DNA of 64,000 nucleotides. Source: Clostridiales bacterium (GTDB lineage: Bacteria; Bacillota; Clostridia; Oscillospirales; CAG-272). Position numbers and translations under genes: made by a program. This document shows, one piece after another, positions 6,707-57,297 of this stretch. Positions within the stretch are counted from its first letter, which is position 1, and the number at the start of each line of letters is the position of its first letter. The stretch spans positions 2,746 to 66,745 of the forward strand of contig JAEEYP010000105.1 of the NCBI GenBank assembly GCA_016288155.1, in the 5' to 3' direction. Below the pieces are notes generated by a model. The model did no database searches. It saw only the letters and a list, made by a program, of their open reading frames with translations, and had not been told where the DNA came from.

Positions 6707-8361
6707 CCGCGCTCCTCTTCGGCACGATGCCTGCCGCCTCAGCGGAGGATGAGACCGCCCTACCGGAGGAAACCGCCCTCACGGAGACCGATCTGCCGGA
6801 GGATCCCGCGTCCGGTGATCCCGTCCCGGGGGATCCCCCGTCCGGTGATCCCGCGCCGGAAGACCCGACCCCGTTCCCGACGGAGCCGGTCGTCTTTTCC
6901 GACACGGAGGGGCACTGGGCGGAGGACGCCATCCGCCGTTTCAGCGAAGCGCTCATCGTCGTCGGCGAGGACGGGCGCTTCCGCCCGGACGATCCGCTGA
7001 CCCGCGCGGAGATGGCGGTGATCCTGTGTCGTGTCATGCGCTATGAAACGGTATCCGACGAGTTATTCGACGATCTGACGGAGGACTGGTACACGCCCGC
7101 GGTCCAGAAGCTGCGCGCCGCCGGCGTGATGCGCGGCGACGAGAACAACCGCGCCCTTCCCAACGATACGATCACCCGGGAGGAAGCCGTCGTCATGATC
7201 GCACGGGCGTTCGCCCTCGCCGATTCGGAGGAGCCGGCGCCGCTCGAGTACCCGGACGCGGATCGGATCTCCGACTGGACGTACGGTTCCGTCGAAGCGA
7301 TGACGGCGCACGGCTTCCTGCACGGAAGCGACGGCGGCTGCTTCTTCCCCGCCGATCCGCTGACCCGCGCGGAAGCGGTGACGGTGCTGAACAACATGAT
7401 CACCGCGTTCATGTATGCCCCCGGCGAATATGATTTCCGCCCCTACGAGGGACTGGCGGACTACGTCGTCATCGCGTCGAACGACGTCACGGTGCTCAAC
7501 TTCGACATCGGCGGGACGATCTTTCTGAGCGAGAGCGTCGACTACGACACGATCCGCCTCAAGGGCGTCAGCCACACGGGGATCGTCCTACAGTACACGC
7601 CGGAAGGCTACATACGCCGCCTCAAGGCGTCCACGCGGATCGTGCCGATCAATCCGGAGCTCCCGACCTGTTCGCACGACTCCTCCCTCTTCCGACTCGA
7701 CGAGCGGGGGATCATGCACTACGACGATCCGGACGTGACGACGTACCTCGGCGTCGACGTCTCCTCCTGGCAGTACGAGATCGATTGGACGCTCCTCAAG
7801 GCGCAGGGAGTGCATTTCGCCTTCATCCGCGCGGGCTACCGCGGCTATGAATCCGGCGATATCGTCGCGGACAAGTATTTCGATATCAATATGCAGGGCG
7901 CGCTGGACGCCGGGATTCACGTAGGCGTGTATTTCTTCTCGCAGGCGATCGATGCCGAGGAAGCGGAGGAGGAAGCGCGCTTCACGCTGGAGATGATCCG
8001 GGATTACAACGTGACCTATCCCGTCGTCTTCGACTGGGAGACGCTGAATTATCCGACCGCGCGCACGAACGATATCGCAACGGAAAAACTGTGCGAGGCG
8101 ACGAACGCCTTCTGCGCGACGGTCGCCTCCGCCGGATATCTGCCGATGGTGTACAGCAACCAGAGCGTTTCCCTGCTCTACTACGAGCTCGGCCGCATCC
8201 AGGAATACGATTTCTGGTACGCGGAGTACCGCGACCATCCGACGTTCTATTACGATTACGACATCTGGCAGTACGGCTCCTCGGCGCATCTGGAGGGCGT
8301 GCCGCTCGCGGAGATCGACGTCAACATCAGCTTCGTCGATTACGCGGCGCCTCGCCCGTGA
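6670..8361 (+). CDS. Secreted cell-wall hydrolase: signal peptide, Pro/Asp-rich linker, three SLH domains, C-terminal GH25 muramidase
   Basis: MKYRTLVCAALAAALLFGTMPAASA signal peptide. Repeated ...F.PDDPLTRAE... SLH motifs. GVDVSSWQYEIDW...FAFIRAGY...GVYFFS is a GH25 signature. Confidence 0.85.
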   Translation: MKYRTLVCAALAAALLFGTMPAASAEDETALPEETALTETDLPEDPASGDPVPGDPPSGDPAPEDPTPFPTEPVVFSDTEGHWAEDAIRRFSEALIVVGEDGRFRPDDPLTRAEMAVILCRVMRYETVSDELFDDLTEDWYTPAVQKLRAAGVMRGDENNRALPNDTITREEAVVMIARAFALADSEEPAPLEYPDADRISDWTYGSVEAMTAHGFLHGSDGGCFFPADPLTRAEAVTVLNNMITAFMYAPGEYDFRPYEGLADYVVIASNDVTVLNFDIGGTIFLSESVDYDTIRLKGVSHTGIVLQYTPEGYIRRLKASTRIVPINPELPTCSHDSSLFRLDERGIMHYDDPDVTTYLGVDVSSWQYEIDWTLLKAQGVHFAFIRAGYRGYESGDIVADKYFDINMQGALDAGIHVGVYFFSQAIDAEEAEEEARFTLEMIRDYNVTYPVVFDWETLNYPTARTNDIATEKLCEATNAFCATVASAGYLPMVYSNQSVSLLYYELGRIQEYDFWYAEYRDHPTFYYDYDIWQYGSSAHLEGVPLAEIDVNISFVDYAAPRP

Positions 8362-9645: not shown

Positions 9646-10134
9646 ATGACCATGAAATGCCCGATGTGCGGATACAACGACAGCAAAGTGATCGATTCCC
9701 GTCCGGTCGAAGAGAACGACAGCATCCGCCGCCGCCGGGAATGCCTGAAGTGCCAGCACCGTTTCACGACGTACGAGGTGATCGAGGCCTTCCAGCCGCT
9801 CATCATCAAAAAGGACGGCTCCAAAGAGTATTTCGACAAGAACAAGCTGCTCGTCGGTCTGCTGAAAGCGTGCGAGAAGCGCCCCGTGGACGCCGAAGCG
9901 ATCGCCGCCGAGATCGAGGCCGAGGTCATGAATTCGCTGCACCGCGAGATCTCCTCGCGGGAGATCGGCGAGATGGCGATGGAAAAGCTGCGCCGCTGCG
10001 ACGCCGTCGCCTACGTGCGCTTCGCTTCCGTGTACCGCGAATTCAAGGACGTGGAGACGTTTCTGCGCGAGCTCTCCGATCTGAAGGCGGATCAGCAGCG
10101 CACGGACGCCGCCGCGGATGCGGAGCCGCGCTGA
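9646..10134 (+). CDS. nrdR: Transcriptional repressor NrdR (zinc ribbon + ATP-cone)
   Basis: MTMKCPMCGYNDSKVIDSRP...RRRRECLKCQHRFTTYE. GGAGAG RBS 8 nt upstream. Confidence 0.92.
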   Translation: MTMKCPMCGYNDSKVIDSRPVEENDSIRRRRECLKCQHRFTTYEVIEAFQPLIIKKDGSKEYFDKNKLLVGLLKACEKRPVDAEAIAAEIEAEVMNSLHREISSREIGEMAMEKLRRCDAVAYVRFASVYREFKDVETFLRELSDLKADQQRTDAAADAEPR

Positions 10135-10145
10135 ACGGACAAACG

Positions 10146-10186
10146 AAAAAAGGATCCCGGAAGCCTCGGCTTCCGGGATCCTTTTT
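10146..10186. terminator. Bidirectional rho-independent terminator
   Basis: aaaaaggatcccggaagc / gcttccgggatccttttt perfect long stem, loop ctcg. Confidence 0.9.
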
Positions 10187-37667: not shown

Positions 37668-39428
37668 TTACAGAACGAGAGTAAGGTTGTTCAGCCCCAG
37701 CGAATTGACGTAGTCCGCGTTCTTGACCATCTTCATGACCGTGCGGATCCCGAAATGCGCGCTCGGATCGTCCGACTTGTGCAGCTCCAGATAGCCGATC
37801 GGGTCGAAGTTCACGCAGTTGTCGCGGATACGGATCATCCGCTGACCGTTTTTGAAGAGCAGGCGGATATCGATCGTATGCTCGCGGTTGTCCTTCGTGA
37901 ACCCGTGCTTGACGATGTTCTCCGTCATTTCCTCGATGCAGATCGAGATCATCGAGCTGTTCCGCGGCGATTCGCCGTGGGCGAGGCAGAACGCCTGCGC
38001 CTTCTGCGACGCCTCGACCGCCTGGTAGGCGTTCCGTACGGTCATTTCCAGATAGTCCCCTTCTCTTGCGCCGAAATCCGTCCCAAGAAGGGAAAATGCC
38101 GCCGGCGTCAGCGAGACGGAACGGTTCTTTATCCACACGACGGCGCAGATGATGAGAAACGTCAGCGTTTCCCCGCACAGATAGCCGAGCCATACGCCGG
38201 TCGTGCCGAGGACGCGGCTGAGAAGGAACGCGGACAGCGCCGTGAAAGCGAAATTCTGCATCACGGAGATCGCTTCGGAGAAAGCGGTCCTATTCACGCC
38301 CTGGTAGTAATTCTTGAAGGTGGTGTTGAGGGCGCTGGGCAGAAGAGAGAGCGAGAACAGCCGCACGCCGAAGACCGCCATGGCGTACGCCTCCGGATTG
38401 TCGGTCAGGAACAGGCGGACGAGGAGCGGCGCCGACGCGAGCACGGCGGCGATGACCGCCAGATCCAGCACGACGGCGTAGAACGTCATCGTCCGTATGA
38501 GCGTATACAGCGCCGTCCGGTCCTCGTCGCCGTAGAAGATGGAGGACAAAAGCAGCGCGACGGAGGCGACGCCGGAGCCGAAGCAGTAGCAGATGTTGCC
38601 GACGGTGGAAACGACCGAGAACGCCGCCACGGCGAGATTCTGCCCGACCTGCAGAAGGATCTTGTTCAGAACGAACACCAGAAGCACGAGACTGATCTGG
38701 TTGACGACCGTGGGAACGCCGTACCGGAGAAGCGCCGCGCAGGTCCCGGCGTCGACCAGACGGGGACGGAGGCGGAACGTGCAGGCGCGCCGCACGAAGA
38801 ACAATAGCCCGATAACGAACGCGATATAGTAGCTCAGGCTGGATGCGAGCCCCATGCCGAAGGTGCCGCCGTGAAAGGCAAAGACGTTCAGGATATCGAA
38901 CAGGACGTCCGCCGCCGTCATCATGCCGACCGCCGCCACGACGCGCGCCCGGTTGCCGGAAAGCTGCAGGTAGGGCACCATGATCTGCGCGAAGAGAAAC
39001 GCGGGCGCGCCGATGATGAAGCCGCGGATATAATCCCGCGTCAGCCGGAACACCTCGTTTCCCGCCTCCGCCGTCCCGGCGCCGAGCATCGTGCAGATCG
39101 GATCGAGAAACAGAAGGACGGCGCTCAGGCCGACCGCGGACACGGCCGCCGCAAGGATGACCGACGCCGAATAGCAGGCGTTCGCCGCGTCCTTGTCGCC
39201 GCTGCCCATCGCCTTGCCGCACAGCACCTGTACGCCGGCGGAAAGCATGCTGCCGAACGCGGCGAACACGAGCAAAACCGGCGCCGCCAGCCCGTACGCG
39301 CTCATGGCGCCGACGCCGAGGAAGCGCCCGATCATGATGCTGTCGATCAGCATGCAGAGCATGACCGTCATGGAAGAAACGATCTGCGTCAGCAGCATTT
39401 GCCTGAATACTTTCCGAATCATCGTCAT
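37668..39428 (-). CDS. MATE family efflux transporter fused to a C-terminal GHKL (SpoIIAB/anti-sigma-kinase-like) ATPase-fold domain
   Basis: About 12 TM MATE core (MIRKVFRQMLLTQIVSS...DSIMIGRFLG). The last ~135 aa are soluble: ...ISICIEEMTENIVKHGF...IDIRLLF...IRIRDNCVNFDP.... The start is uncertain (39428 or 39422). Confidence 0.7.
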   Translation of the reverse strand: MTMIRKVFRQMLLTQIVSSMTVMLCMLIDSIMIGRFLGVGAMSAYGLAAPVLLVFAAFGSMLSAGVQVLCGKAMGSGDKDAANACYSASVILAAAVSAVGLSAVLLFLDPICTMLGAGTAEAGNEVFRLTRDYIRGFIIGAPAFLFAQIMVPYLQLSGNRARVVAAVGMMTAADVLFDILNVFAFHGGTFGMGLASSLSYYIAFVIGLLFFVRRACTFRLRPRLVDAGTCAALLRYGVPTVVNQISLVLLVFVLNKILLQVGQNLAVAAFSVVSTVGNICYCFGSGVASVALLLSSIFYGDEDRTALYTLIRTMTFYAVVLDLAVIAAVLASAPLLVRLFLTDNPEAYAMAVFGVRLFSLSLLPSALNTTFKNYYQGVNRTAFSEAISVMQNFAFTALSAFLLSRVLGTTGVWLGYLCGETLTFLIICAVVWIKNRSVSLTPAAFSLLGTDFGAREGDYLEMTVRNAYQAVEASQKAQAFCLAHGESPRNSSMISICIEEMTENIVKHGFTKDNREHTIDIRLLFKNGQRMIRIRDNCVNFDPIGYLELHKSDDPSAHFGIRTVMKMVKNADYVNSLGLNNLTLVL

Positions 39429-39520
39429 ACCTGTCGTCACGGATTTGCGCGGACCGAGCCGCACGCGGGGGGAACGTCTATATTATATCATTTTTCGACC
39501 CGTTTGTACAGATGTTTTTT

Positions 39521-40420: not shown

Positions 40421-40535
40421 GAGGGCGGCGCGAAATGTTCCGCCGAAGGGACGGCGCCCCCCCGTCCCGCGGCGTCCGGATACAATATATTGAGGCAAAG
40501 CGCCCCACCTCCGCGTCAACCCCGCGCGGAGGCCG

Positions 40536-40551
40536 GATAACGCGCGTTATC
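40536..40551. repeat. Perfect 16-bp palindrome GATAACGCGCGTTATC at the high-GC/low-GC boundary
   Basis: Read directly; it is its own reverse complement. Confidence 0.9.
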
Positions 40552-40645
40552 GTTCCCGGCGGCGGCTCATATATATAATGAAAAGAACGGACCGTCCGTC
40601 CGCAAAAAAAACTCGAAACAGTATGAACTTTTTTTTGAAAAACTC

Positions 40646-40673
40646 TTGCAATTCCGCGATTATGTGGTATAAT
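40646..40673 (+). promoter_or_regulatory. Promoter TTGCAA-16-TATAAT (TG-extended) for the LRR gene
   Basis: cTTGCAAttccgcgattatgtggTATAATata. Confidence 0.6.
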
Positions 40674-40733
40674 ATAGGCGTATGTATATGGGGACATATA
40701 TGTATCCACAATTTTACGGAGGTTTTTACAGCG

Positions 40734-42113
40734 ATGAAAAAGAGAATTCTCAGCATTTGCCTGGCGCTGGTAATGGTGCTGGGACTGACGCCGGTGGTGA
40801 TTGCCGAATCAGGAACTGGTTGGTCATATAGTGGTGGAACACTAGAGATCGAACAAGATGGCTATAACCCGGATGACTTCGCAAGTTTTGCAAGCAGTGT
40901 TACTACAGTAAAGATCGATCAGGGCGTCAATACAATCGTAGCGTATTCTTTCAAGAATATGAAGAATCTTACCACCGTTACGTGGGGTGCACACGGCAAC
41001 GGCAACTCTCAGCATATTGTAAATATCGGCGATGGCGCTTTTGAAGGCTGCACGAATCTTACGTCCTTTGTTCTGCCTGGTAAAACTTCAACACTAGAAA
41101 CGGTTGGAGAAAACGCTTTCAGTGGTTGCTCGAGCCTTACTACGGTTGATCTGAAAAAATCAAATAATGTTTCGTTCGGTCCCGGCGCGTTTGACGGCTG
41201 CTCCAGCCTCACGACGTTTAACTACAATGGGAGCAATGGTCCGGATGTGAACAACCTCCTTCCCGCGGTCATGGGCGATCATAGGCTCATGCTTTCCGAT
41301 ATGATCGGCGTGATGTTCCATATCAGTATTCCGGCTTGTATCGAAGATCCGTCTACCGTCAGCGTTAAGTTCACTGTCGGTCCTGATGATACAGTCAATA
41401 GGGAAGTCACCGTATCTGCAACTCCGAATATTCCGGGTTCCAGCGCACGTGAGGCTTATTTTAACTGCGAGATCAACCCGCTTGAGATGGGCGATACGAT
41501 CACCGCGCATATCATCGTCGGCACCGAGGAAAAGGGAACGGCCAAGTCTTATACCGCGCTGAAGGCCATCATGGATTATAAGTTGGCATATCCCAGCGGA
41601 GATATTTATGATCTCGTCGACGCGCTTCACGCTTACGGTTACTTCATTTATCAGGCAAGAAACGATATCAACGACGGCAAACAGCATGCGGAGATTTCTG
41701 ATGTGATTGTTGACGGAGATACCAGCGTGGGTTTGACTTTGTCTTCCATTGATCTTGATGAAGTTAAGTCTGCGGTTGCGCAGTATGCACCTATCCGTTC
41801 GGTTCCGGATGGTGTTACCGCTCGCTGCGTGCTCAACCTGAACCTCTATGCCAGAACCAATCTGGTAGTCAAAGTCAATGATGTTGTCAAGTCTCGTGGT
41901 GATATCGGCCCCGGTGATCTTGATGATTTTTCCAGTAACGCTGCGTTGTTTACTTTTGACGACGAGGTCACGGTGAGAGCTTGCGTCCTGTCTTACGTTT
42001 ACATCTCACTTGCTAATCCCAACAATGCAAACAAGACTGATAAGTTGACGGCTATTGCGGCATTGTATTATTACAATCAGGCTGCTAATACCTATCTCGC
42101 GAACAATCCGTAA
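40734..42113 (+). CDS. Secreted BspA-type leucine-rich-repeat protein with an uncharacterised C-terminal domain
   Basis: GGAGG at 40718. Signal peptide MKKRILSICLALVMVLGLTPVVIA. Repeats IGDGAFEGCTNLTS / VGENAFSGCSSLTT / GPGAFDGCSSLTT. GC content and codon usage are clearly lower than in the flanks. Confidence 0.75.
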   Translation: MKKRILSICLALVMVLGLTPVVIAESGTGWSYSGGTLEIEQDGYNPDDFASFASSVTTVKIDQGVNTIVAYSFKNMKNLTTVTWGAHGNGNSQHIVNIGDGAFEGCTNLTSFVLPGKTSTLETVGENAFSGCSSLTTVDLKKSNNVSFGPGAFDGCSSLTTFNYNGSNGPDVNNLLPAVMGDHRLMLSDMIGVMFHISIPACIEDPSTVSVKFTVGPDDTVNREVTVSATPNIPGSSAREAYFNCEINPLEMGDTITAHIIVGTEEKGTAKSYTALKAIMDYKLAYPSGDIYDLVDALHAYGYFIYQARNDINDGKQHAEISDVIVDGDTSVGLTLSSIDLDEVKSAVAQYAPIRSVPDGVTARCVLNLNLYARTNLVVKVNDVVKSRGDIGPGDLDDFSSNAALFTFDDEVTVRACVLSYVYISLANPNNANKTDKLTAIAALYYYNQAANTYLANNP

Positions 42114-42152
42114 GGTTTACGTTTCAGTATATTTCTGAAAGGAGAAATCACA

Positions 42153-42254
42153 ATGGAAAAGTACGAAAGTCTTGTTTTGGAGATCCTCTATATTGAAACC
42201 GACGATATTATCATTACTTCTGGTGATATGGATCCCGGTGATGAGGAGTTCTGA
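42153..42254 (+). CDS. Mini-ORF 1 (33 aa): MEKYESLVLEILYIETDDIIITSGDMDPGDEEF
   Basis: RBS gaaaGGAGaaatcaca precedes the ATG. The N-terminal 24 aa are homologous to mini-ORF 2. Too short for the ORF track. Confidence 0.55.
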   Translation: MEKYESLVLEILYIETDDIIITSGDMDPGDEEF

Positions 42255-42305
42255 GGAAACCCTCATAAACAACGATCCGTAAACCGATCAAGCAAACTTG
42301 AAATG

Positions 42306-42340
42306 CCAGTCAGGTTTAACCATAATCTGACTGGTGTTTC
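42306..42340 (+). other. Hairpin between the two mini-ORFs (possible partial terminator/attenuator)
   Basis: ccagtcag / ctgactgg 8-bp stem, 13-nt loop, then tgtttcatt. Confidence 0.35.
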
Positions 42341-42386
42341 ATTACAGAGACAGCGCACCCATACCGATAGGAAAGGGGTTCAGACC

Positions 42387-42572
42387 TTGGAAGAATATGA
42401 AGTTCTTAATATCGAGATCATAAGTTTTGACTCGGCTGATATGATCCTGACAAGCGGATACACATACGTCAGCGGGGACGAAAGCGATACCACTGCCGAA
42501 ACCACCGGCGGCAGCGGCGGCGGCACCGGCACCGGCGGCGGGAACGGAACGATTATTCTTCCGCCTGTCTGA
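42387..42572 (+). CDS. Mini-ORF 2 (61 aa, TTG start): MEEYEVLNIEIISFDSADMILTSG... with a Gly/Thr-rich tail GGSGGGTGTGGGNGTIILPPV
   Basis: RBS aGGAAAGGGG lies 8 nt before the TTG. The start was chosen by alignment to mini-ORF 1 and is in frame within ORF 42303..42572. Confidence 0.5.
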   Translation: MEEYEVLNIEIISFDSADMILTSGYTYVSGDESDTTAETTGGSGGGTGTGGGNGTIILPPV

Positions 42573-42655
42573 CGCTTGCCCCTCTTCCTCACTGTCCTTT
42601 CATACCGTCGTCAGCCGCACTCCGCGTTATCCATTCACGCGCTGCGATCCGACGC

Positions 42656-42688
42656 GCCGGTCAGGCAGCAACGCCTGACCGGCTTTTT
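42656..42688 (+). terminator. Rho-independent terminator closing the LRR/mini-ORF unit
   Basis: gccggtcaggc / gcctgaccggc stem, then TTTTT. Confidence 0.85.
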
Positions 42689-42717: not shown

Positions 42718-42764
42718 CAAAAAGATCCGCCGGGAGAAGGCGTCGCCTTCTCCCGGCGGTTTTC
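42718..42764. terminator. Bidirectional terminator (serves the minus-strand GH35 operon)
   Basis: ccgccgggagaagg / ccttctcccggcgg stem, flanked by aaaaa and tttt. Confidence 0.85.
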
Positions 42765-53155: not shown

Positions 53156-54373
53156 TCACTTCTCCTCCCACGAGACCCCGCCGTCCGTCGAAATCCATTC
53201 AAACACGCCGCCCTCGCGGTCGTTCAGCGAGAGCCGCAGTCCGCCCGACTCCCCATTCAGACGGACAAGGCAGAATCCGCTCTCAAACCATCCGCTCTCC
53301 GAGGAGGCACAGGGGAGATCCCCCCGATAGAGGATCCGCCAACTTTGCCCGCCGTCAGAGGTGAACTGTCCGACGATGTCCTCCGCCCCGCCGGTCCAGT
53401 GCTCGGCGATCACGTTCTCGTACACAAGGAGCCCGATCCGTTCGCTCACCCAGCAGCTGTACGCATACCCGTCCCTCCATCCGGTCGGCTCCGGACGCGC
53501 ATCCGTTTCCACCCACGTGATCCCGCCGTCCGAAGTGAACAGCACGTTCGTTTTGGTATACCACGAATGGAAGACGAGCACGCCCGTGCTCTCGCCGATG
53601 CGCTGTAAGCTGCAGTTGTACACCGCGTCCTCGAGCGGGGAGAGATCGTAATACCACGCCTGCCAGTTTTCGTCGCCGTCGCTGCCCGGCGATGACACAA
53701 GAGACAACTTCCGCTCACAACTCGTGAATAGGCAGTCCGGGGAAACGAGCGGCTCCCCCGGGAAAACGGCGTCCGCGTACTTCTCACGGTAAAACGGCGC
53801 GACGGTCGGGTCTATTTTTACGTCTGTTATCGCCGAGGGCTGCCGGAAACCGTAAAACACGTGACACCCCTCGGGGATATAACCGTCGGTCGCCTGCCGG
53901 CAGCAGGCAAAGGCACCAAAGTCGATGAACCGCACGCTGTCCGGCAGAAGGACGCTTTCGATTTCCGTCTGATAAAAGGCGAAGCACCCGACGTAGCGCA
54001 GCGCGGTATTGAACTGTACGTTCCGGATCGTGCTCTCCTCGAACGCGCCCGGCGCGATAAAGAGGACGTTTTCGGGCAAAATGAACGTATCGGCGGCGCC
54101 GCCCCAGCGGTACAGCGTCCTGCCGTCCGCCGAGTACGTCGTGCCGTCGACGACGATCCAGCCGTCGGCGGGCCGCGCCGCATCGAGCGGGACGAACGCG
54201 CCGTCGTCGCCCTTCTGCACGATCTCCGCGCGCGTGACGCCGTCCCGTTCCGTATACCGGTAGGTGAACTCCGCCGACGGATCGGCGTATTCGGTCTTGT
54301 CGGAACGGGAACAGGAGAGCAGCAGACACGCGAGTGCGGCGGACAGAACGAAAACGATCCCAAGTTTTTTCAT
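53156..54373 (-). CDS. Lipoprotein with BspA-like LRR segment and BNR/Asp-box repeats
   Basis: MKKLGIVFVLSAALACLLLSC lipobox. APGAFEES...VGCFAFYQ...DFGAFACC is LRR-like. Asp-boxes TSDGGITW, TSDGGQSW and STDGGVSW. Confidence 0.75.
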   Translation of the reverse strand: MKKLGIVFVLSAALACLLLSCSRSDKTEYADPSAEFTYRYTERDGVTRAEIVQKGDDGAFVPLDAARPADGWIVVDGTTYSADGRTLYRWGGAADTFILPENVLFIAPGAFEESTIRNVQFNTALRYVGCFAFYQTEIESVLLPDSVRFIDFGAFACCRQATDGYIPEGCHVFYGFRQPSAITDVKIDPTVAPFYREKYADAVFPGEPLVSPDCLFTSCERKLSLVSSPGSDGDENWQAWYYDLSPLEDAVYNCSLQRIGESTGVLVFHSWYTKTNVLFTSDGGITWVETDARPEPTGWRDGYAYSCWVSERIGLLVYENVIAEHWTGGAEDIVGQFTSDGGQSWRILYRGDLPCASSESGWFESGFCLVRLNGESGGLRLSLNDREGGVFEWISTDGGVSWEEK

Positions 54374-54423
54374 CGTCTTTCTCCTTTTTTGATTCCGGAT
54401 TTATTATAATGCAGACGCGCGGG
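54354..54423. repeat. Copy 2 of the 70-bp start/RBS/-10 repeat
   Basis: See copy 1. Confidence 0.9.
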
Positions 54424-54431
54424 AAAATCAA
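54403..54431 (-). promoter_or_regulatory. Promoter TTGATT-17-TATAAT for 53156..54373
   Basis: The reverse complement reads cTTGATTttcccgcgcgtctgcatTATAATaaa. Confidence 0.65.
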
Positions 54432-54468
54432 GCGCTCTCACAAGTACTCTCATATATATAAACAATTG

Positions 54469-54524
54469 AAACGTGAGAATGTGCCGAAAAACCGAAAATG
54501 TTCAAAGAATGTTAACATTTTCGC
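54469..54524. promoter_or_regulatory. Copy 2 of the 56-bp upstream element (GAgAATGT / GAAAATGT / ACATTTTC)
   Basis: Half-sites at 54475, 54494 and 54515. GAAAATGTT and AACATTTTC form an exact 9-bp inverted repeat. Confidence 0.5.
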
Positions 54525-54576
54525 TTGCCGCCGCGGGGCGGCGTGAGCGGAACGCCGTCCGTCCCTCCCGCTGTTC

Positions 54577-54602
54577 ATACTATTTTATACTACTTTATAC
54601 TA
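54577..54602 (+). promoter_or_regulatory. Three ATACTA boxes phased exactly 10 bp apart upstream of the RHH gene (operator candidate)
   Basis: tcATACTAttttATACTActttATACTActtg. Boxes at 54577, 54587 and 54597. Confidence 0.5.
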
Positions 54603-54672
54603 CTTGTCAATACCAAATGCTACAAAAGGCTATAATAATACGTGTAACCTGTGGAAAGAACGGGATGGGAAA

Positions 54673-54831
54673 ATGAAACCGTTAAAGGAAAAAATCAGCA
54701 TTACGATCGACGGCGATATCCTGGAAGCCGCGAAAGCGGCGGCCGAGGCGGACGACCGGTCTTTATCGCAGTTCATAAACATTGCGATCCGGACCTATCT
54801 GGCGGGTATCCGTCCCGAAAAGAAGTTCTGA
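54673..54831 (+). CDS. Ribbon-helix-helix (CopG/antitoxin-like) DNA-binding protein, 52 aa
   Basis: MKPLKEKISITIDGDILEAAKAAAEADDRSLSQFINIAIRTYL shows the beta-strand/helix/helix RHH pattern. The ORF extends to 54604, so the start is uncertain. Confidence 0.6.
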   Translation: MKPLKEKISITIDGDILEAAKAAAEADDRSLSQFINIAIRTYLAGIRPEKKF

Positions 54832-54916
54832 CGCTCCGGACGGACGAAAGCAGGACGCGGGATCCGTCAAAAGAAAACGGGGGCGTTTCGGGGGATGAGG
54901 GCGGCTCCATTGCATG

Positions 54917-54965
54917 AAAAGCGGGACACTTGCTTGATCGCAAGTGTCCCGCGTGCTCGTTTTTT
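54917..54965. terminator. Bidirectional rho-independent terminator
   Basis: gcgggacacttgc / gcaagtgtcccgc stem, with aaaa before and a T-run after. Confidence 0.8.
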
Positions 54966-54980
54966 CCGCCGATGCGGGGA

Positions 54981-56780
54981 TCATTCGCCGAAGATCGAGA
55001 GCGTCGGAAGCGCGCCCTCCTCCGTCTTCCAGATGCCGCCGAAGTCGAAGCCCTCGAAGGAGCACTCCGCGCCGTCTCTCAGATCGTAGCAGTAATACGT
55101 GCCGTACTTGACGTGGTTCTCGGCACAGAACGCCTCGAAATCTCCGTCCGGGAACGCCAGGGCGATCCATTGTGACAGGGCAGCGTACTCCCGCGGTTTG
55201 AGATCGGGATCGAGCTGCCAGAAGACCCCGCCATCGACGTCCTCAAGATAGAAATCCTGAACGTCGATGTCTCTTTCTTCGTATTCATTTCTGCTGTAGA
55301 AGACAATGAATCTTTCCGAACACCAGCCGAGGCGTGCGTCGCCGCTGATGTCCGGGATCTCTGCCGAACAGATCTCCGTAAACCGTTTCCGGCATTCTTT
55401 ATACCATTCCTCGTCCCCGACCTGTGCGGGCTTCGGAGCGTTCATCGTTTCTTTCCACGCCTTTCGGACGGCGTCCGTGATCCGCTCGGCGTCTTCCGCG
55501 TTCACGTATGCTTTGGTCGATGAGTACATAGGGTACAAACGCGCATAGATCTCGCAGAAGACGGAATCGGGAAGCACGTAGGGCACGTCGTTCTCACGGA
55601 TGAAGCTCACGCCCGCGTCCATCGCAGGATCGCAGGAGATCTCCCCGCTGAAGTACGAGGTCACGCACGCCGAGGAGAACCCGGCGACGCCGCCGACCCG
55701 CGTCACGCACACGACGTCTCCCATCACCGTCTCGCACACCGCGTCCGCCGAGCCGTCCACGGTGATGCGCGCGTCCGACGTGCAGGAGTCCGCGAGATAG
55801 GCGCCGCCCGCCGCGCCGCCGACGCCGAGTTCCGCGGACAGGCCCCTGCCGCAGGTGTCGACTGCAAGGCTGACCTTGATCTCCGCGTTTTTCACGTAAC
55901 AGCCGAGCAGGTAGTCCGCGTACCCGGCGATCGCGCCGACGTAGCCGTTCGTACTCATGCTCGCCTCGATCACCGCGTCCTCCAGGCCGAGGTTCTTGAT
56001 GACGCCGCCTTTGCCCCACAGCATCCGCTGGTATTCCGAGTTTTCGCTCAGGGATCCCAGCGCCACGAGCTCGCCCGCCTCGTTTCTGAGAGTGTCCGGG
56101 ATGCCGTCGCCGTTGAGGTCATACAGATCTTCAGGGTCAACGCCGTCGGGGATCGTCGGCACTGTGCCCGGCTCTTCAAGGAAGAAATTCTCAATTCTCA
56201 GAGAGAAGGCAGACTGACAGCGCCCGAAAAGCCCGACGTATTCCGTATCCTCCGCCCGGATCCTGAGCCCGCGCACGACGTATCCGTTGCCGTTGAACGA
56301 GCCGATAAACGGCTGCTTTCTCGTGCCGATCGGTACCCAGCCGCCCTCGAACGCGCCGCCCTCGGCAAAATCCGCTTCGGTGAACTCGATGTCGTTCATC
56401 AGGATATAGTTGAAGGCGATCTTGTCCCGTATCCGGTCGAGATCCTCCGCCGTATAGATGCCGATCCATCCCTCGGGCACCTCGTCGAGGCGTTTCAGGT
56501 TCTGCGCCGAAAGCGCGCCGACGTTGAGGAATTTCTTCACGAGCGGTGCGGCGACGGTACAGGCTCCGAGCAGCAAGAGGATCGCGGCGGCCGCCATGAC
56601 CACCTTCCACCGGATTTTTCTTCCCGTGGGAACCTTCTCTTCCCTTCCCGTCCCCGACAGGGTCGCCGAGACCCGCGCGTCGAGCGAGGGAGAACAGAGT
56701 TCGCCCGTGTCCTGCGCGGCGGGCTCGGCGTACCGCTTTGCCGCCGCTTCCAGTTCACGATCAAACGTTTTCATTTTCAT
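54981..56780 (-). CDS. Anti-sigma-factor-like single-pass membrane protein with a large extracellular domain carrying GLUG-like Gly-rich repeats
   Basis: Overlaps the sigma gene stop by 20 nt. Cytoplasmic N-terminus of ~60 aa, TM segment WKVVMAAAAILLLLGACTVAAPL, then YVGLFG / YVGAIAGY / VGGVAGF motifs. Confidence 0.65.
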   Translation of the reverse strand: MKMKTFDRELEAAAKRYAEPAAQDTGELCSPSLDARVSATLSGTGREEKVPTGRKIRWKVVMAAAAILLLLGACTVAAPLVKKFLNVGALSAQNLKRLDEVPEGWIGIYTAEDLDRIRDKIAFNYILMNDIEFTEADFAEGGAFEGGWVPIGTRKQPFIGSFNGNGYVVRGLRIRAEDTEYVGLFGRCQSAFSLRIENFFLEEPGTVPTIPDGVDPEDLYDLNGDGIPDTLRNEAGELVALGSLSENSEYQRMLWGKGGVIKNLGLEDAVIEASMSTNGYVGAIAGYADYLLGCYVKNAEIKVSLAVDTCGRGLSAELGVGGAAGGAYLADSCTSDARITVDGSADAVCETVMGDVVCVTRVGGVAGFSSACVTSYFSGEISCDPAMDAGVSFIRENDVPYVLPDSVFCEIYARLYPMYSSTKAYVNAEDAERITDAVRKAWKETMNAPKPAQVGDEEWYKECRKRFTEICSAEIPDISGDARLGWCSERFIVFYSRNEYEERDIDVQDFYLEDVDGGVFWQLDPDLKPREYAALSQWIALAFPDGDFEAFCAENHVKYGTYYCYDLRDGAECSFEGFDFGGIWKTEEGALPTLSIFGE

Positions 56781-57297
56781 CGCTCCAATCCTTTCTGTGT
56801 TCTTTCAGCCAGTTTTTTGCCCGAGACAGTCTGGTGCGCACCGTTCCTCTCTCAAGTCCGAGAAACGCCGCGATCTCCCCCGTACCGTACCCGAACCGCG
56901 CCTTAAGCAAAAGCACGTCCCGGTAGGACGGCGGCATGACGCGCACAAGCGCGAGCAGCCGATCCGCTCCGTCCCGTGCCGCGGCGATATCCTCCGGATC
57001 CATTTCCCGCAGCGGATCCTCCGGGAGCGTCTCGACGGGCAGGGGGCGTTTTTGATTTGCGCGGTACAGATCGATCGCGGTGTTTCTGACATATATAACC
57101 GCGAGCGCGACCGAATCGTTACATACGAGTCCGGAAAACTTGCGCTCGTTTTTCACGATGCGTTCCATCGCGTCCATCACGGCGTCTTCCGCGTCCGCGC
57201 GGTTCTGCAGGATGCGGAACGCTTCGCGGTACATGGCGTGCTTCGCCCGATCCCATACGAGCGCTGCCGGTCGTTTCTCTTCCGTCAAATCCATCAC
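56761..57297 (-). CDS. ECF-type RNA polymerase sigma-70 family factor
   Basis: Region 2 (AEDAVMDAMERIV...YVRNTAIDLYR) and region 4 HTH (YGTGEIAAFLGLERGTVRTRLSRAKNWL). ATG at 57294, GTG at 57297. Confidence 0.8.
   Translation of the reverse strand: MMDLTEEKRPAALVWDRAKHAMYREAFRILQNRADAEDAVMDAMERIVKNERKFSGLVCNDSVALAVIYVRNTAIDLYRANQKRPLPVETLPEDPLREMDPEDIAAARDGADRLLALVRVMPPSYRDVLLLKARFGYGTGEIAAFLGLERGTVRTRLSRAKNWLKEHRKDWSDENENV

Follow-up and report, generated by a model that had tools for sequence, protein, structure and literature searches.

Two short open reading frames (ORFs), here named pep1 and pep2, belong to a peptide family that recurs in gut and rumen Clostridia and is matched by no named family. 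They lie in a 64,000-nucleotide stretch of the genome of a Clostridiales bacterium (Oscillospirales, CAG-272; GenBank assembly GCA_016288155.1, contig JAEEYP010000105.1, positions 2,746 to 66,745 of the forward strand), hereafter called the window, in whose own coordinates all positions are given. Within a segment of low guanine-plus-cytosine (GC) content, the two genes follow the gene for a secreted surface protein. This protein–peptide module recurs across gut and rumen Clostridia: one or two peptide genes, encoding 30–60 amino acids, directly follow the protein gene, each with its own ribosome-binding site. The peptides combine a constant N-terminal block (the “N-block”) with a variable tail, and they are tied both to one C-terminal domain of surface proteins and to a conserved gene cassette. 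As the best explanation of the whole, we consider it fairly probable that they are precursors of the ribosomally synthesized, post-translationally modified peptide (RiPP) type, located here in a “satellite” module, with the C-terminal domain of the surface protein as their partner. The two peptide genes of the window are as follows.

42153–42254, plus strand: pep1, 33 amino acids, ATG start, MEKYESLVLEILYIETDDIIITS followed by GDMDPGDEEF; AGGAG 8 nucleotides upstream.
42387–42572, plus strand: pep2, 61 amino acids, TTG start, (M)EEYEVLNIEIISFDSADMILTS followed by GYTYVSGDESDTTAETTGGSGGGTGTGGGNGTIILPPV; the family N-block plus a long tail.

The genes pep1 and pep2 are real, not chance ORFs. A preliminary description of this DNA had noted that about 12 of their first 24 residues agree while the tails diverge; counting gives 12 of 24, and Y4, E5, E10, D18, I20, T22, and S23 are common to both peptides. 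In pep1, the N-block would be the putative leader and the 10-residue acidic tail the putative core, while the tail of pep2 ends in a motif of the family's “LPxV” type (IILPPV). Neither peptide contains Cys, both have a T-S-G junction with no GG, and no signal peptide is present. A profile of 11 members from other organisms, which includes no window sequence, matches pep1 with E = 4.3e-10 and pep2 with E = 2.3e-8, and it picks out exactly these two among the 1,349 six-frame segments of the window (next best, 0.29). Gene callers have predicted both ORFs on metagenome contigs as “hypothetical protein”, pep2 in an 89-residue version, and the exact pep1 sequence is called on five other metagenome contigs.

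A word-indexed protein search with both peptides returned only near-identical copies (P0001, 97%) and one 66% orthologue of pep2 (P0002). The 801-bp contig that carries this orthologue (L006) preserves the order of the window, with the end of the protein gene, a 33-residue peptide (MEKYESPVFEILYFESADIVTSSSTDMEPDWEE), a hairpin, and the pep2 orthologue, which keeps the TTG start and the C-terminal IILPPV and has an in-frame 15-nucleotide indel. All of the indels inside the ORFs are multiples of three. The ratio of nonsynonymous to synonymous substitution rates (dN/dS) against L006 is 0.23 for the whole of pep1, 0.13 for its N-block, and 0.38 for the end of the protein gene. Purifying selection, whose absence the preliminary description had named as telling against a peptide family, is thus evident for pep1, while for pep2 it is weak (0.62 for the whole gene, with few changes). 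The pep2 DNA is far better conserved than its surroundings, with dS = 0.27 as compared to 0.95 for pep1 and 0.86 for the protein gene, and its GC content rises from 0.375 in the N-block to 0.65 in the Gly-rich tail; both features may stem from recent recombination or from nucleotide-level constraint.

The family is large. An exhaustive HMMER search with a three-sequence profile (E ≤ 1e-3) yielded at least 210 sequence clusters, nearly all of 30–60 residues with the block at the N-terminus, so that the search for Clostridia homologues proposed in the preliminary description gave an abundant answer. The consensus is MEKYExLEMEVIxFxxEDVIxTSG, in which the last G is usual but not constant, and a short variable tail comes after it. 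Within the acidic N-block of 23–24 residues, Y4, D18, and S23 are invariant and E5, E10, F14, I20, and T22 are conserved in at least 90% of the members, whereas the tails are hypervariable to the point of being unalignable, and are rich in Asp, Glu, Gly, and Pro. A pattern scan over one genome per species gave at least 249 sites confirmed by tblastn. The hosts are Oscillospiraceae, Ruminococcus (including R. flavefaciens isolates), Lachnospiraceae, Faecalibacterium, Blautia, Oribacterium, and Solobacterium. Tandem arrays of precursor genes occur, with six copies at locus L019 and five at L031. No Pfam or NCBIfam model is matched by the window peptides or by consensus-like members, even at E = 10, and no description of the peptides, the C-terminal domain, or the gene set was found in the full-text literature. 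A 1,947-residue match (P0144) was discarded as spurious, since it is a cadherin-like repeat protein.

Two loci depart from the common picture. Locus L081 (886–10153) holds four copies of a divergent subfamily (MKKYIAPEMNITKFDVEDVITASV...) with 25-residue tails ending in DF..IFK; two of the copies (6846–6995 and 10001–10153) each directly follow a secreted protein of 256–281 residues, which to the eye resembles a cohesin-type beta-sandwich and not the usual C-terminal domain. A complete module of protein and two peptides is present in a metagenome-assembled genome labelled Prevotella sp. (L080, JBJFGK010000030.1), while all of the other hosts are Bacillota; the label probably reflects a binning error or a cross-phylum transfer.

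What do the peptide genes accompany? The preliminary description had asked for a tabulation of neighbouring genes, and we carried it out on 80 loci fetched through the peptide, by calling ORFs, clustering them, and identifying the recurrent clusters. Two partners recur, a secreted protein upstream with a common C-terminal domain and a downstream cassette. At 40 of the 80 loci, the gene immediately upstream on the peptide's strand encodes a secreted protein, with a median gap of 28 nucleotides, and the ORF clustering groups the window protein with the upstream proteins of these 40 loci. Conversely, the fetched loci contain 35 ORFs with the C-terminal domain, and a family peptide comes next in 33 cases; the other two ORFs are each a second copy in their locus. 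The spacer between the domain protein and the peptide measures 3–60 nucleotides in all but two loci (39 nucleotides between the protein gene and pep1 in the window), and nearly every spacer contains a ribosome-binding site. The parts of the window protein are given below.

40734–42113, plus strand: gene for the secreted 459-residue protein, with a GGAGG ribosome-binding site.
40734–40805, plus strand (residues 1–24): Sec-type signal peptide, MKKRILSICLALVMVLGLTPVVIA followed by E, recognized from the sequence.
41010–41228, plus strand (residues 93–165): BspA-type leucine-rich repeat (LRR), PF13306 LRR_5, E = 8e-18, 65 bits against a cut-off of 27.7.
41241–42110, plus strand (residues ~170–459): conserved unnamed C-terminal domain of ~290 residues, delimited by alignment with ~30 proteins that precede family peptides elsewhere.

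The upstream proteins are secreted and range from 430 to 3,300 residues, and only the last ~290 residues are common to all of them. The N-terminal passengers differ, being LRR_5, a GH88 hydrolase plus InlB-B repeats, or GLUG. The earlier suggestion that the peptides are partners of the LRR protein survives as a very strong genetic tie, but the partner is the C-terminal domain, and the LRR is interchangeable with GH88, InlB-B, and GLUG. The window protein carries the domain complete (E = 2e-58 against a domain profile that includes the window sequence). Its motifs include SLxLxGxIGxNFY, YxFTCxV...M...ITA, YSVxxY, LxxAxxxYGxxAxxY, and SxxSYxYxxL, and its last element is a helix, ALYxYxxAAxxY. 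The domain has no Pfam match singly and no recurrent weak Pfam match across 35 members, and its profile gives at most chance-level matches to the Protein Data Bank (PDB) sequences (best E = 0.19). A protein search with the domain alone returned the window protein itself and nothing else. All of the 3,111 matches to the full protein run through the LRR repeat, and the C-terminal domain is present in none of the 120 best-scoring ones that were checked; a candidate full-length relative with 70% coverage (P0025) was rejected, since it aligns through the LRR alone and has no peptide nearby. With the LRR protein as the query, neither the genome-collection scan nor the metagenome scan gave a match. 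In the single-sequence AlphaFold2 model of the window protein, the LRR part is confident, and residues 167–459 have a predicted local distance difference test (pLDDT) score below 50.

Several peculiarities concern this domain and its spacing from the peptide. A 39-nucleotide piece of the domain (41880–41918, DVVKSRGDIGPGD) is 74% identical to the pep1 junction (42204–42242, DIIITSGDMDPGD), and the resemblance is less marked in the L006 orthologue; it could be due to chance, a small gene conversion, or a peptide that mimics a segment of the domain. At locus L023 (6953–9901), a 982-residue upstream protein matches the domain profile in its N-terminal part (residues 80–321, E = 1e-13), and the domain is therefore not always terminal. 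Locus L076 (7012–17233) has one peptide gene flanked by paralogous surface proteins of 977 and 2,355 residues with closely similar C-terminal domains, the second of which has no peptide of its own. Finally, pep1 shares the reading frame of the protein gene, with one TAA and 13 sense codons between the two (42111–42155), and the peptide is in frame at 18 of 33 related loci (L009–L087), where one-third would be expected and many of the loci are related to each other. Readthrough into a protein–peptide fusion was rejected as a general mechanism, because this arrangement is limited to these 18 loci and a separate ribosome-binding site is present in nearly every spacer.

The second partner is the cassette, which lies downstream of the peptide at about 30 of the 80 loci, with the strand shared and the gene order fixed. 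It is composed of the following genes.

Gene 1: HPr-kinase-like protein, with a conserved Walker A motif; best NCBIfam match ScmC, far below the cut-off.
Gene 2: PqqD (PF05402, E = 3.5e-13).
Gene 3: 143-residue S26-like peptidase, a weak match to the ER/archaeal-type signal peptidase, with GdSMlP, LHR, and GDN conserved.
Gene 4: ATP-binding cassette (ABC) exporter without a peptidase domain, aligning to bacteriocin exporters only from model position 143.
Gene 5: 378-residue nucleotidyltransferase (PF14907, E = 5.6e-39).

Over the 80 loci, the HPr-kinase-like gene was counted 34 times, the S26-like and/or PF14907 genes 31 times, the ABC exporter 30 times, and PqqD at least 11 times. A variant found at 11 loci adds a 452-residue radical S-adenosylmethionine (SAM)/SPASM enzyme, and the tails at these loci are rich in Cys. 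The kinase-like, S26-like, and nucleotidyltransferase proteins had no match in a PDB sequence search. In RiPP pathways, PqqD is the element classically known to bind the leader. The presence of PqqD, an S26-type peptidase, and an ABC exporter gives the cassette a RiPP-like context. Among the 30 loci with at least 3 kb of upstream and at least 6 kb of downstream sequence, the arrangements are distributed as follows.

Protein and peptide only: 12 of 30, the commonest arrangement and that of the window.
Protein and cassette both, in one operon: 6 of 30.
Cassette only: 7 of 30.
Neither: 5 of 30, two of them still with a large unclustered protein upstream.

At the protein-plus-peptide loci, the downstream genes are unrelated to each other. 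In the 64-kb window, tblastn with all of the cassette representatives detected no homologue at E < 1e-3, in agreement with the earlier statement that the window holds no maturase or transporter, at least for the enzymes of this family. The window therefore represents a satellite precursor module, the processing of which would call for a cassette at another place in the genome.

An additional protein of ~320 residues directly follows the peptide at six loci (L028, L037, L041, L054, L056, and L063; for example, L054 10189–11151), and in L054, L056, and L063 it lies between the peptide and the kinase-like gene. It has a signal peptide and one LRR-like unit, together with a long stalk of acidic, low-complexity sequence and a C-terminal membrane anchor, and may be a surface anchor belonging to the system. 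A Pro-rich 269-residue protein takes its position in L018.

The chemistry of the tails tracks the adjacent genes. Beside radical-SAM genes, the tails have a median length of 23 residues with 2.27 Cys per tail. Beside the surface protein, the median is 12 residues, with no Cys, 24% Asp plus Glu, and 1% Lys plus Arg; Pro-Asp/Glu occurs in 45% of these tails, and many of them end, like pep2, in a hydrophobic-Pro-x-x motif. The preliminary description had compared a conserved leader with a variable core to the precursors of RiPPs, bacteriocins, or signalling peptides, and the family bears this out, as the N-block is kept, the tails vary, the cassette accompanies them at about 30 of the 80 loci, and the tail composition follows the enzyme. 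In the AlphaFold2 model computed with the family alignment, the N-block is extended (pLDDT 88–93) and the tail is floppy (56). The modelled extended N-block would fit a leader that turns into a strand on binding.

How could the tail of such a peptide reach the cell surface? From these data we infer the leader and core roles, the cleavage site, the modifications, the export, the dependence on a cassette in trans, and the contact with the surface protein, as follows. The N-block would be a leader peptide, bound by the PqqD-type recognition protein. The tail would be the core, tailored by the HPr-kinase-like enzyme and the PF14907 nucleotidyltransferase and, in the Cys-rich relatives, by the radical-SAM enzyme. 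The Ser/His signal-peptidase-like S26 protease would release the core near the T-S-G junction, between Ser and Gly, and the small residues at this site would suit an S26-type peptidase. The ABC transporter would then export the core. The module of the window would be processed in trans by a cassette at another genomic site. Once released, the short acidic peptide would have its target outside the cell, and the most plausible one is the C-terminal domain of the surface protein encoded with it. The protein is exported via Sec, and the peptide, having no signal peptide, needs the ABC exporter, which is absent from the window.

Docking of the exported tail on the domain, given a cassette elsewhere in these genomes, is the explanation that we prefer, although physical contact between the peptide and the surface protein is by itself a tentative proposal, somewhat less likely than not. 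A more elaborate version, in which the domain and the peptide form a cognate pair, is improbable in its full form: here, a hitherto undescribed RiPP class would be dedicated to the surface proteins of gut and rumen Clostridia, with linear, acidic, Pro-containing products that are tailored by the HPr-kinase-like and PF14907 enzymes, released by the S26 protease, exported by the ABC transporter, and used for peptide-based sorting or docking. Once exported, such a peptide would serve to bind, anchor, activate, or mark the domain that is common to passengers as different as LRR adhesins, a GH88 hydrolase, and InlB-repeat proteins.

Some observations weigh against the precursor scheme. The window and the 12 comparable loci have no processing genes within 6–10 kb, and if no cassette exists, the signal-less peptide would stay in the cytoplasm while the protein is secreted, and the idea of a ligand would fail. 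The literature yielded nothing on the modification, cleavage, or export of any family member. The loci were retrieved via the peptide, and the rate of finding a peptide given the C-terminal domain is accordingly biased upward. The domain has no usable model, and therefore offers no structural hint of a peptide-binding site. The purifying selection on pep2 is weak against its one orthologue, with dN/dS of 0.97 in the N-block and only 12 substitutions.

Accordingly, other explanations must be weighed. The peptides might be small acidic cytoplasmic proteins that remain unprocessed and serve the upstream gene, as a co-translated chaperone or export-competence factor for the C-terminal domain or as a regulator of its expression, with the cassette loci as a separate use of the N-block. 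The absence of a nearby cassette in the window and in 12 of the 30 well-flanked loci would agree with this idea, as would the missing signal peptide, the 3–60-nucleotide spacers, which suggest tight co-translation, and the in-frame position at 18 of 33 loci, a hint of common ancestry or of coupling. However, the N-block is almost unchanged in the 7 of 30 loci that have the cassette and no surface protein, six loci unite protein, peptide, and cassette in one operon, and a constant block with a hypervariable tail in tandem arrays fits precursors better than a chaperone; we hold this explanation to be unlikely. A toxin–antidote-like pair, with the C-terminal domain as the effector and the downstream acidic peptide neutralizing it in the producer, is suggested by a large secreted multi-domain protein with variable N-terminal parts and a small gene within tens of nucleotides. 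Polymorphic toxins vary at their C-terminal tip, and their immunity proteins are mutually unrelated. Here, the C-terminal domain is one family matching no toxin family, the peptides have a constant block, and they are found beside PqqD, radical-SAM, and ABC genes too, with no such protein present, which makes this pairing highly unlikely.

The two remaining candidates have still less in their favour. Lasso-peptide precursors of the Firmicutes (paeninodin) type are suggested by Thr at −2, Gly at +1, and Asp/Glu at core positions 7–9 in both window peptides, provided that the cut falls between Ser and Gly, and by the fit of the N-block to the rumen lasso leader pattern (PMC7533575) and the enzymes shared with paeninodin-type clusters. 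Against this, the 80 loci show no recurrent cyclase or B2 protease, the comparison of profiles is weak (4.5%, 14 columns), and an acidic residue at positions 7–9 is expected by chance in about half of the cores, which are 24% acidic. Moreover, the 10-residue core of pep1 is too short for a lasso ring with a threaded tail. The lasso explanation is, therefore, extremely unlikely. As for chance ORFs in a 3′ untranslated region, whose similarity would reflect a local DNA duplication, the ORFs are indeed short and pep2 requires a TTG start. Nevertheless, hundreds of members across several Clostridia families, the at least 249 confirmed sites, the independent profile (E = 4e-10 and 2e-8), the ribosome-binding sites, the conserved start, and the in-frame indels leave this idea with a negligible probability, and we dismissed it.

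We now turn to the segment in which the module resides. It is best explained as a single transcription unit, consisting of the promoter, the protein gene, pep1, the hairpin, pep2, and the terminator. The palindrome, the TG-extended promoter, the LRR gene, the mini-ORFs with ribosome-binding sites (33 residues; 61 residues, TTG start), the hairpin, and the terminator of the preliminary description were all found in place. The noncoding elements are listed here.

40536–40551: palindrome of 16 bp, perfect in both arms, GATAACGCGCGTTATC, at the left border of the low-GC segment.
40646–40673, plus strand: sigma-70-type promoter, TTGCAA-16-TATAAT, TG-extended, recognized by consensus match (10 of 12 consensus positions).
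42299–42341, plus strand: hairpin between pep1 and pep2, 18-bp stem with a weak U-tract behind it.
42656–42683 (element to 42688), plus strand: intrinsic terminator at the module end, 11-bp stem with 9 G-C pairs, then TTTTT.
42727–42759: bidirectional terminator of the host, serving the convergent GH35/42 gene; outside the module, on its 3′ side.

The 136-nucleotide spacer between pep1 and pep2 folds with −36.3 kcal/mol (z = −2.9), and none of 200 shuffled sequences folds equally well. In L006, the hairpin stem is preserved while the loop is changed, with two wobble pairs converted to Watson–Crick pairs, and the 5′ arm of the terminator stem at 42656 is kept as far as the contig reaches. The hairpin is probably a leaky terminator or a transcript-stabilizing 3′ end, which would set the ratio of pep1 to pep2 or stabilize the upstream transcript; neither the hairpin nor the segment matches an Rfam family.

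The drop in base composition noted earlier is pronounced. The GC content is 0.472 for 40566–42655, as compared to 0.613 ± 0.022 (minimum 0.548) in all of the other intervals of equal size (z = −6.3), and the GC content at third codon positions (GC3) is 0.51 for the LRR gene and 0.77–0.91 in the neighbouring genes. In other genomes, the GC content of the module mostly equals that of the host, with a few outliers (−0.12, −0.10, and +0.09). Since GC and GC3 are outlying here and GC is host-like in most other genomes, the module looks recently imported. On compositional grounds, it probably entered this genome recently, from a Clostridium-class donor with ~47% GC. The horizontal acquisition proposed in the preliminary description is, therefore, backed strongly by composition, but no mobility gene, empty site, or second context accompanies it: the low-GC segment contains no integrase or transposase, and neither the look-up with the flanking short-chain dehydrogenase (SDR; predicted GTG start) nor two metagenome scans revealed an empty site or a second genomic context. 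The exact 32-nucleotide pep2 pattern had no match in the JGI metagenomes. The other contigs bearing the islet are at most 2.6 kb long, and in the longest of them (L001) both ends bear short gene fragments on the minus strand, such as the SDR and glycoside hydrolase (GH) flanks might give. The consensus peptide had no matches on plasmids and one on a viral contig.

At the edges, a half-site of the palindrome (GGATAACGCG / CGCGTTATCC) recurs just 5′ of the terminator, as a 10-nucleotide inverted repeat (40535–40544 / 42623–42632). A repeat of 9–10 nucleotides thus brackets the low-GC segment; over 2.6 kb, chance alone should produce 10-nucleotide matches, and the sequence around the right copy (42623–42632) is partly conserved in L006. 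A target-site duplication at the islet edges (CGCGTTATC at 40543 and 42623) was rejected, because its right copy is partly conserved in the divergent L006 and its length is at the chance level.

Ordinary metabolic genes flank the module, with a MatE/HATPase fusion and the SDR gene on the left and a GH35/42 beta-galactosidase and GDSL lipases on the right. The fusion (37668–39464, minus strand) is unusual, with a MatE efflux domain and a C-terminal HATPase_c_2 of the anti-sigma-factor-kinase type in 598 residues. Farther away, a stretch of the minus strand (53156–57297) includes the gene for a second BspA-type LRR protein, a 405-residue lipoprotein (PF13306, E = 3e-11). Upstream of this gene are those for an extracytoplasmic function (ECF)-type sigma factor (56761–57297) and a 599-residue membrane protein without a Pfam match, which may be the anti-sigma factor of that ECF sigma. 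An ECF sigma gene also directly follows the protein-plus-peptide module in R. flavefaciens SAb67 (L025).

Of all the results, the link between peptide and C-terminal domain stands out most and is explained least. If the precursor scheme is true, a few hundred “hypothetical” mini-genes of abundant gut and rumen bacteria would make up a single precursor family, belonging to a peptide pathway not yet characterised. The 24-residue leader profile provides a simple sequence handle for it; current rules would miss the many loci without a nearby enzyme. The constant pairing with an unnamed end domain on unrelated surface proteins points to a role at the cell surface rather than plain antibiosis, and would bear on the attachment of bacteria to fibre, mucus, or each other. 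For the annotation of the window, the gain is two real genes and one new protein domain.

How does the family relate to known systems? The closest described ones are the lasso clusters of Firmicutes of the paeninodin and pseudomycoidin type, which have in common with the family cassette PqqD, the HPr-kinase-like protein, the PF14907-type nucleotidyltransferase, and the ABC exporter. The leaders are also alike, with an aromatic residue at position 4, often Pro at 7, alternating hydrophobic residues and Glu, and Thr near the junction, followed by Gly. Rumen lasso leaders have the pattern M-K-x-[WY]-x-x-P-x-hydrophobic-E (Table 3 of PMC7533575), as in the Butyrivibrio example MKAWNTPVIETLEINETAA, which is followed by G (PMC7533575). 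A comparison by hhalign of the family with six rumen and Bacillus lasso precursors gave a probability of 4.5% (P = 0.009) over 14 columns in the expected register, which is not significant. Assuming the cut between Ser and Gly, the cores read G1...D7/E8/E9 in pep1 and G1...D8/E9 in pep2, with Thr at −2, a weakly specific pattern in cores that are 24% acidic; in the L006 orthologue of pep1, Ser replaces Gly at the core start. In contrast to the lasso clusters, neither an asparagine-synthetase-like lasso cyclase nor a B2 transglutaminase-like protease recurs among the 80 loci, where every recurrent same-strand cluster was assigned to something else, and none is in the window as far as the tblastn with the cassette genes and the survey of the flanks extend. 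The Ser/His signal-peptidase-like S26 protein takes the place of both. The family leader is ~4 residues longer, the cores are often too short for a lasso, and the link to a surface protein has no counterpart in lasso clusters. By analogy, the family may work partly like a lasso pathway, in leader recognition, phosphorylation or nucleotidylation, and export, but its members are very unlikely to be lasso peptides.

The Cys-rich relatives resemble the radical SAM/SPASM Cys-rich RiPPs, that is, the ranthipeptides and sactipeptides (TIGR04463, TIGR04334 “Clo7bot”, CefB, and PapB), since they lie beside the 452-residue radical SAM/SPASM enzyme and PqqD, some of them with up to five tandem peptide genes. 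This enzyme belongs to none of the named maturase families (best NCBIfam match 129 bits, cut-off 525). With no Cys in pep1 and pep2, and no counterpart of the family's radical-SAM maturase among the window's genes, we rejected the two as sactipeptides or ranthipeptides. We also rejected them as double-glycine (class II) bacteriocins, because their T-S-G junction lacks GG and the family exporter lacks the C39 peptidase domain. The SynChlorMet (Scm) cassette of TIGRFAMs shares with the family the combination of the HPr-kinase-like ScmC, PqqD, and SPASM enzymes, and includes two radical SAM proteins. Its gene content, host range, and precursors differ, and membership was rejected, since the kinase-like protein reaches only 30.2 bits against the NCBIfam ScmC cut-off of 125.

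A 2026 survey of rumen isolates (Hungate1000) reported 153 biosynthetic gene clusters found only via the RiPP recognition element (RRE), the second largest class and uncharacterised (PMC13289728). Our cassette loci probably fall in this “RRE-containing” bin of antiSMASH, while the family precursors, the cassette, and the surface-protein link are not described there. The window module has no RRE, and RRE-based rules would therefore miss it. By its N-terminal part, the window protein clearly belongs to the BspA-type LRR surface proteins (PF13306), but the LRR is only a passenger, and the proteins that share its C-terminal domain carry other passengers. Read at the level of sequence, these comparisons support a RiPP-like pathway with a PqqD-dependent cassette and, in addition, an unusual conserved coupling to surface proteins.

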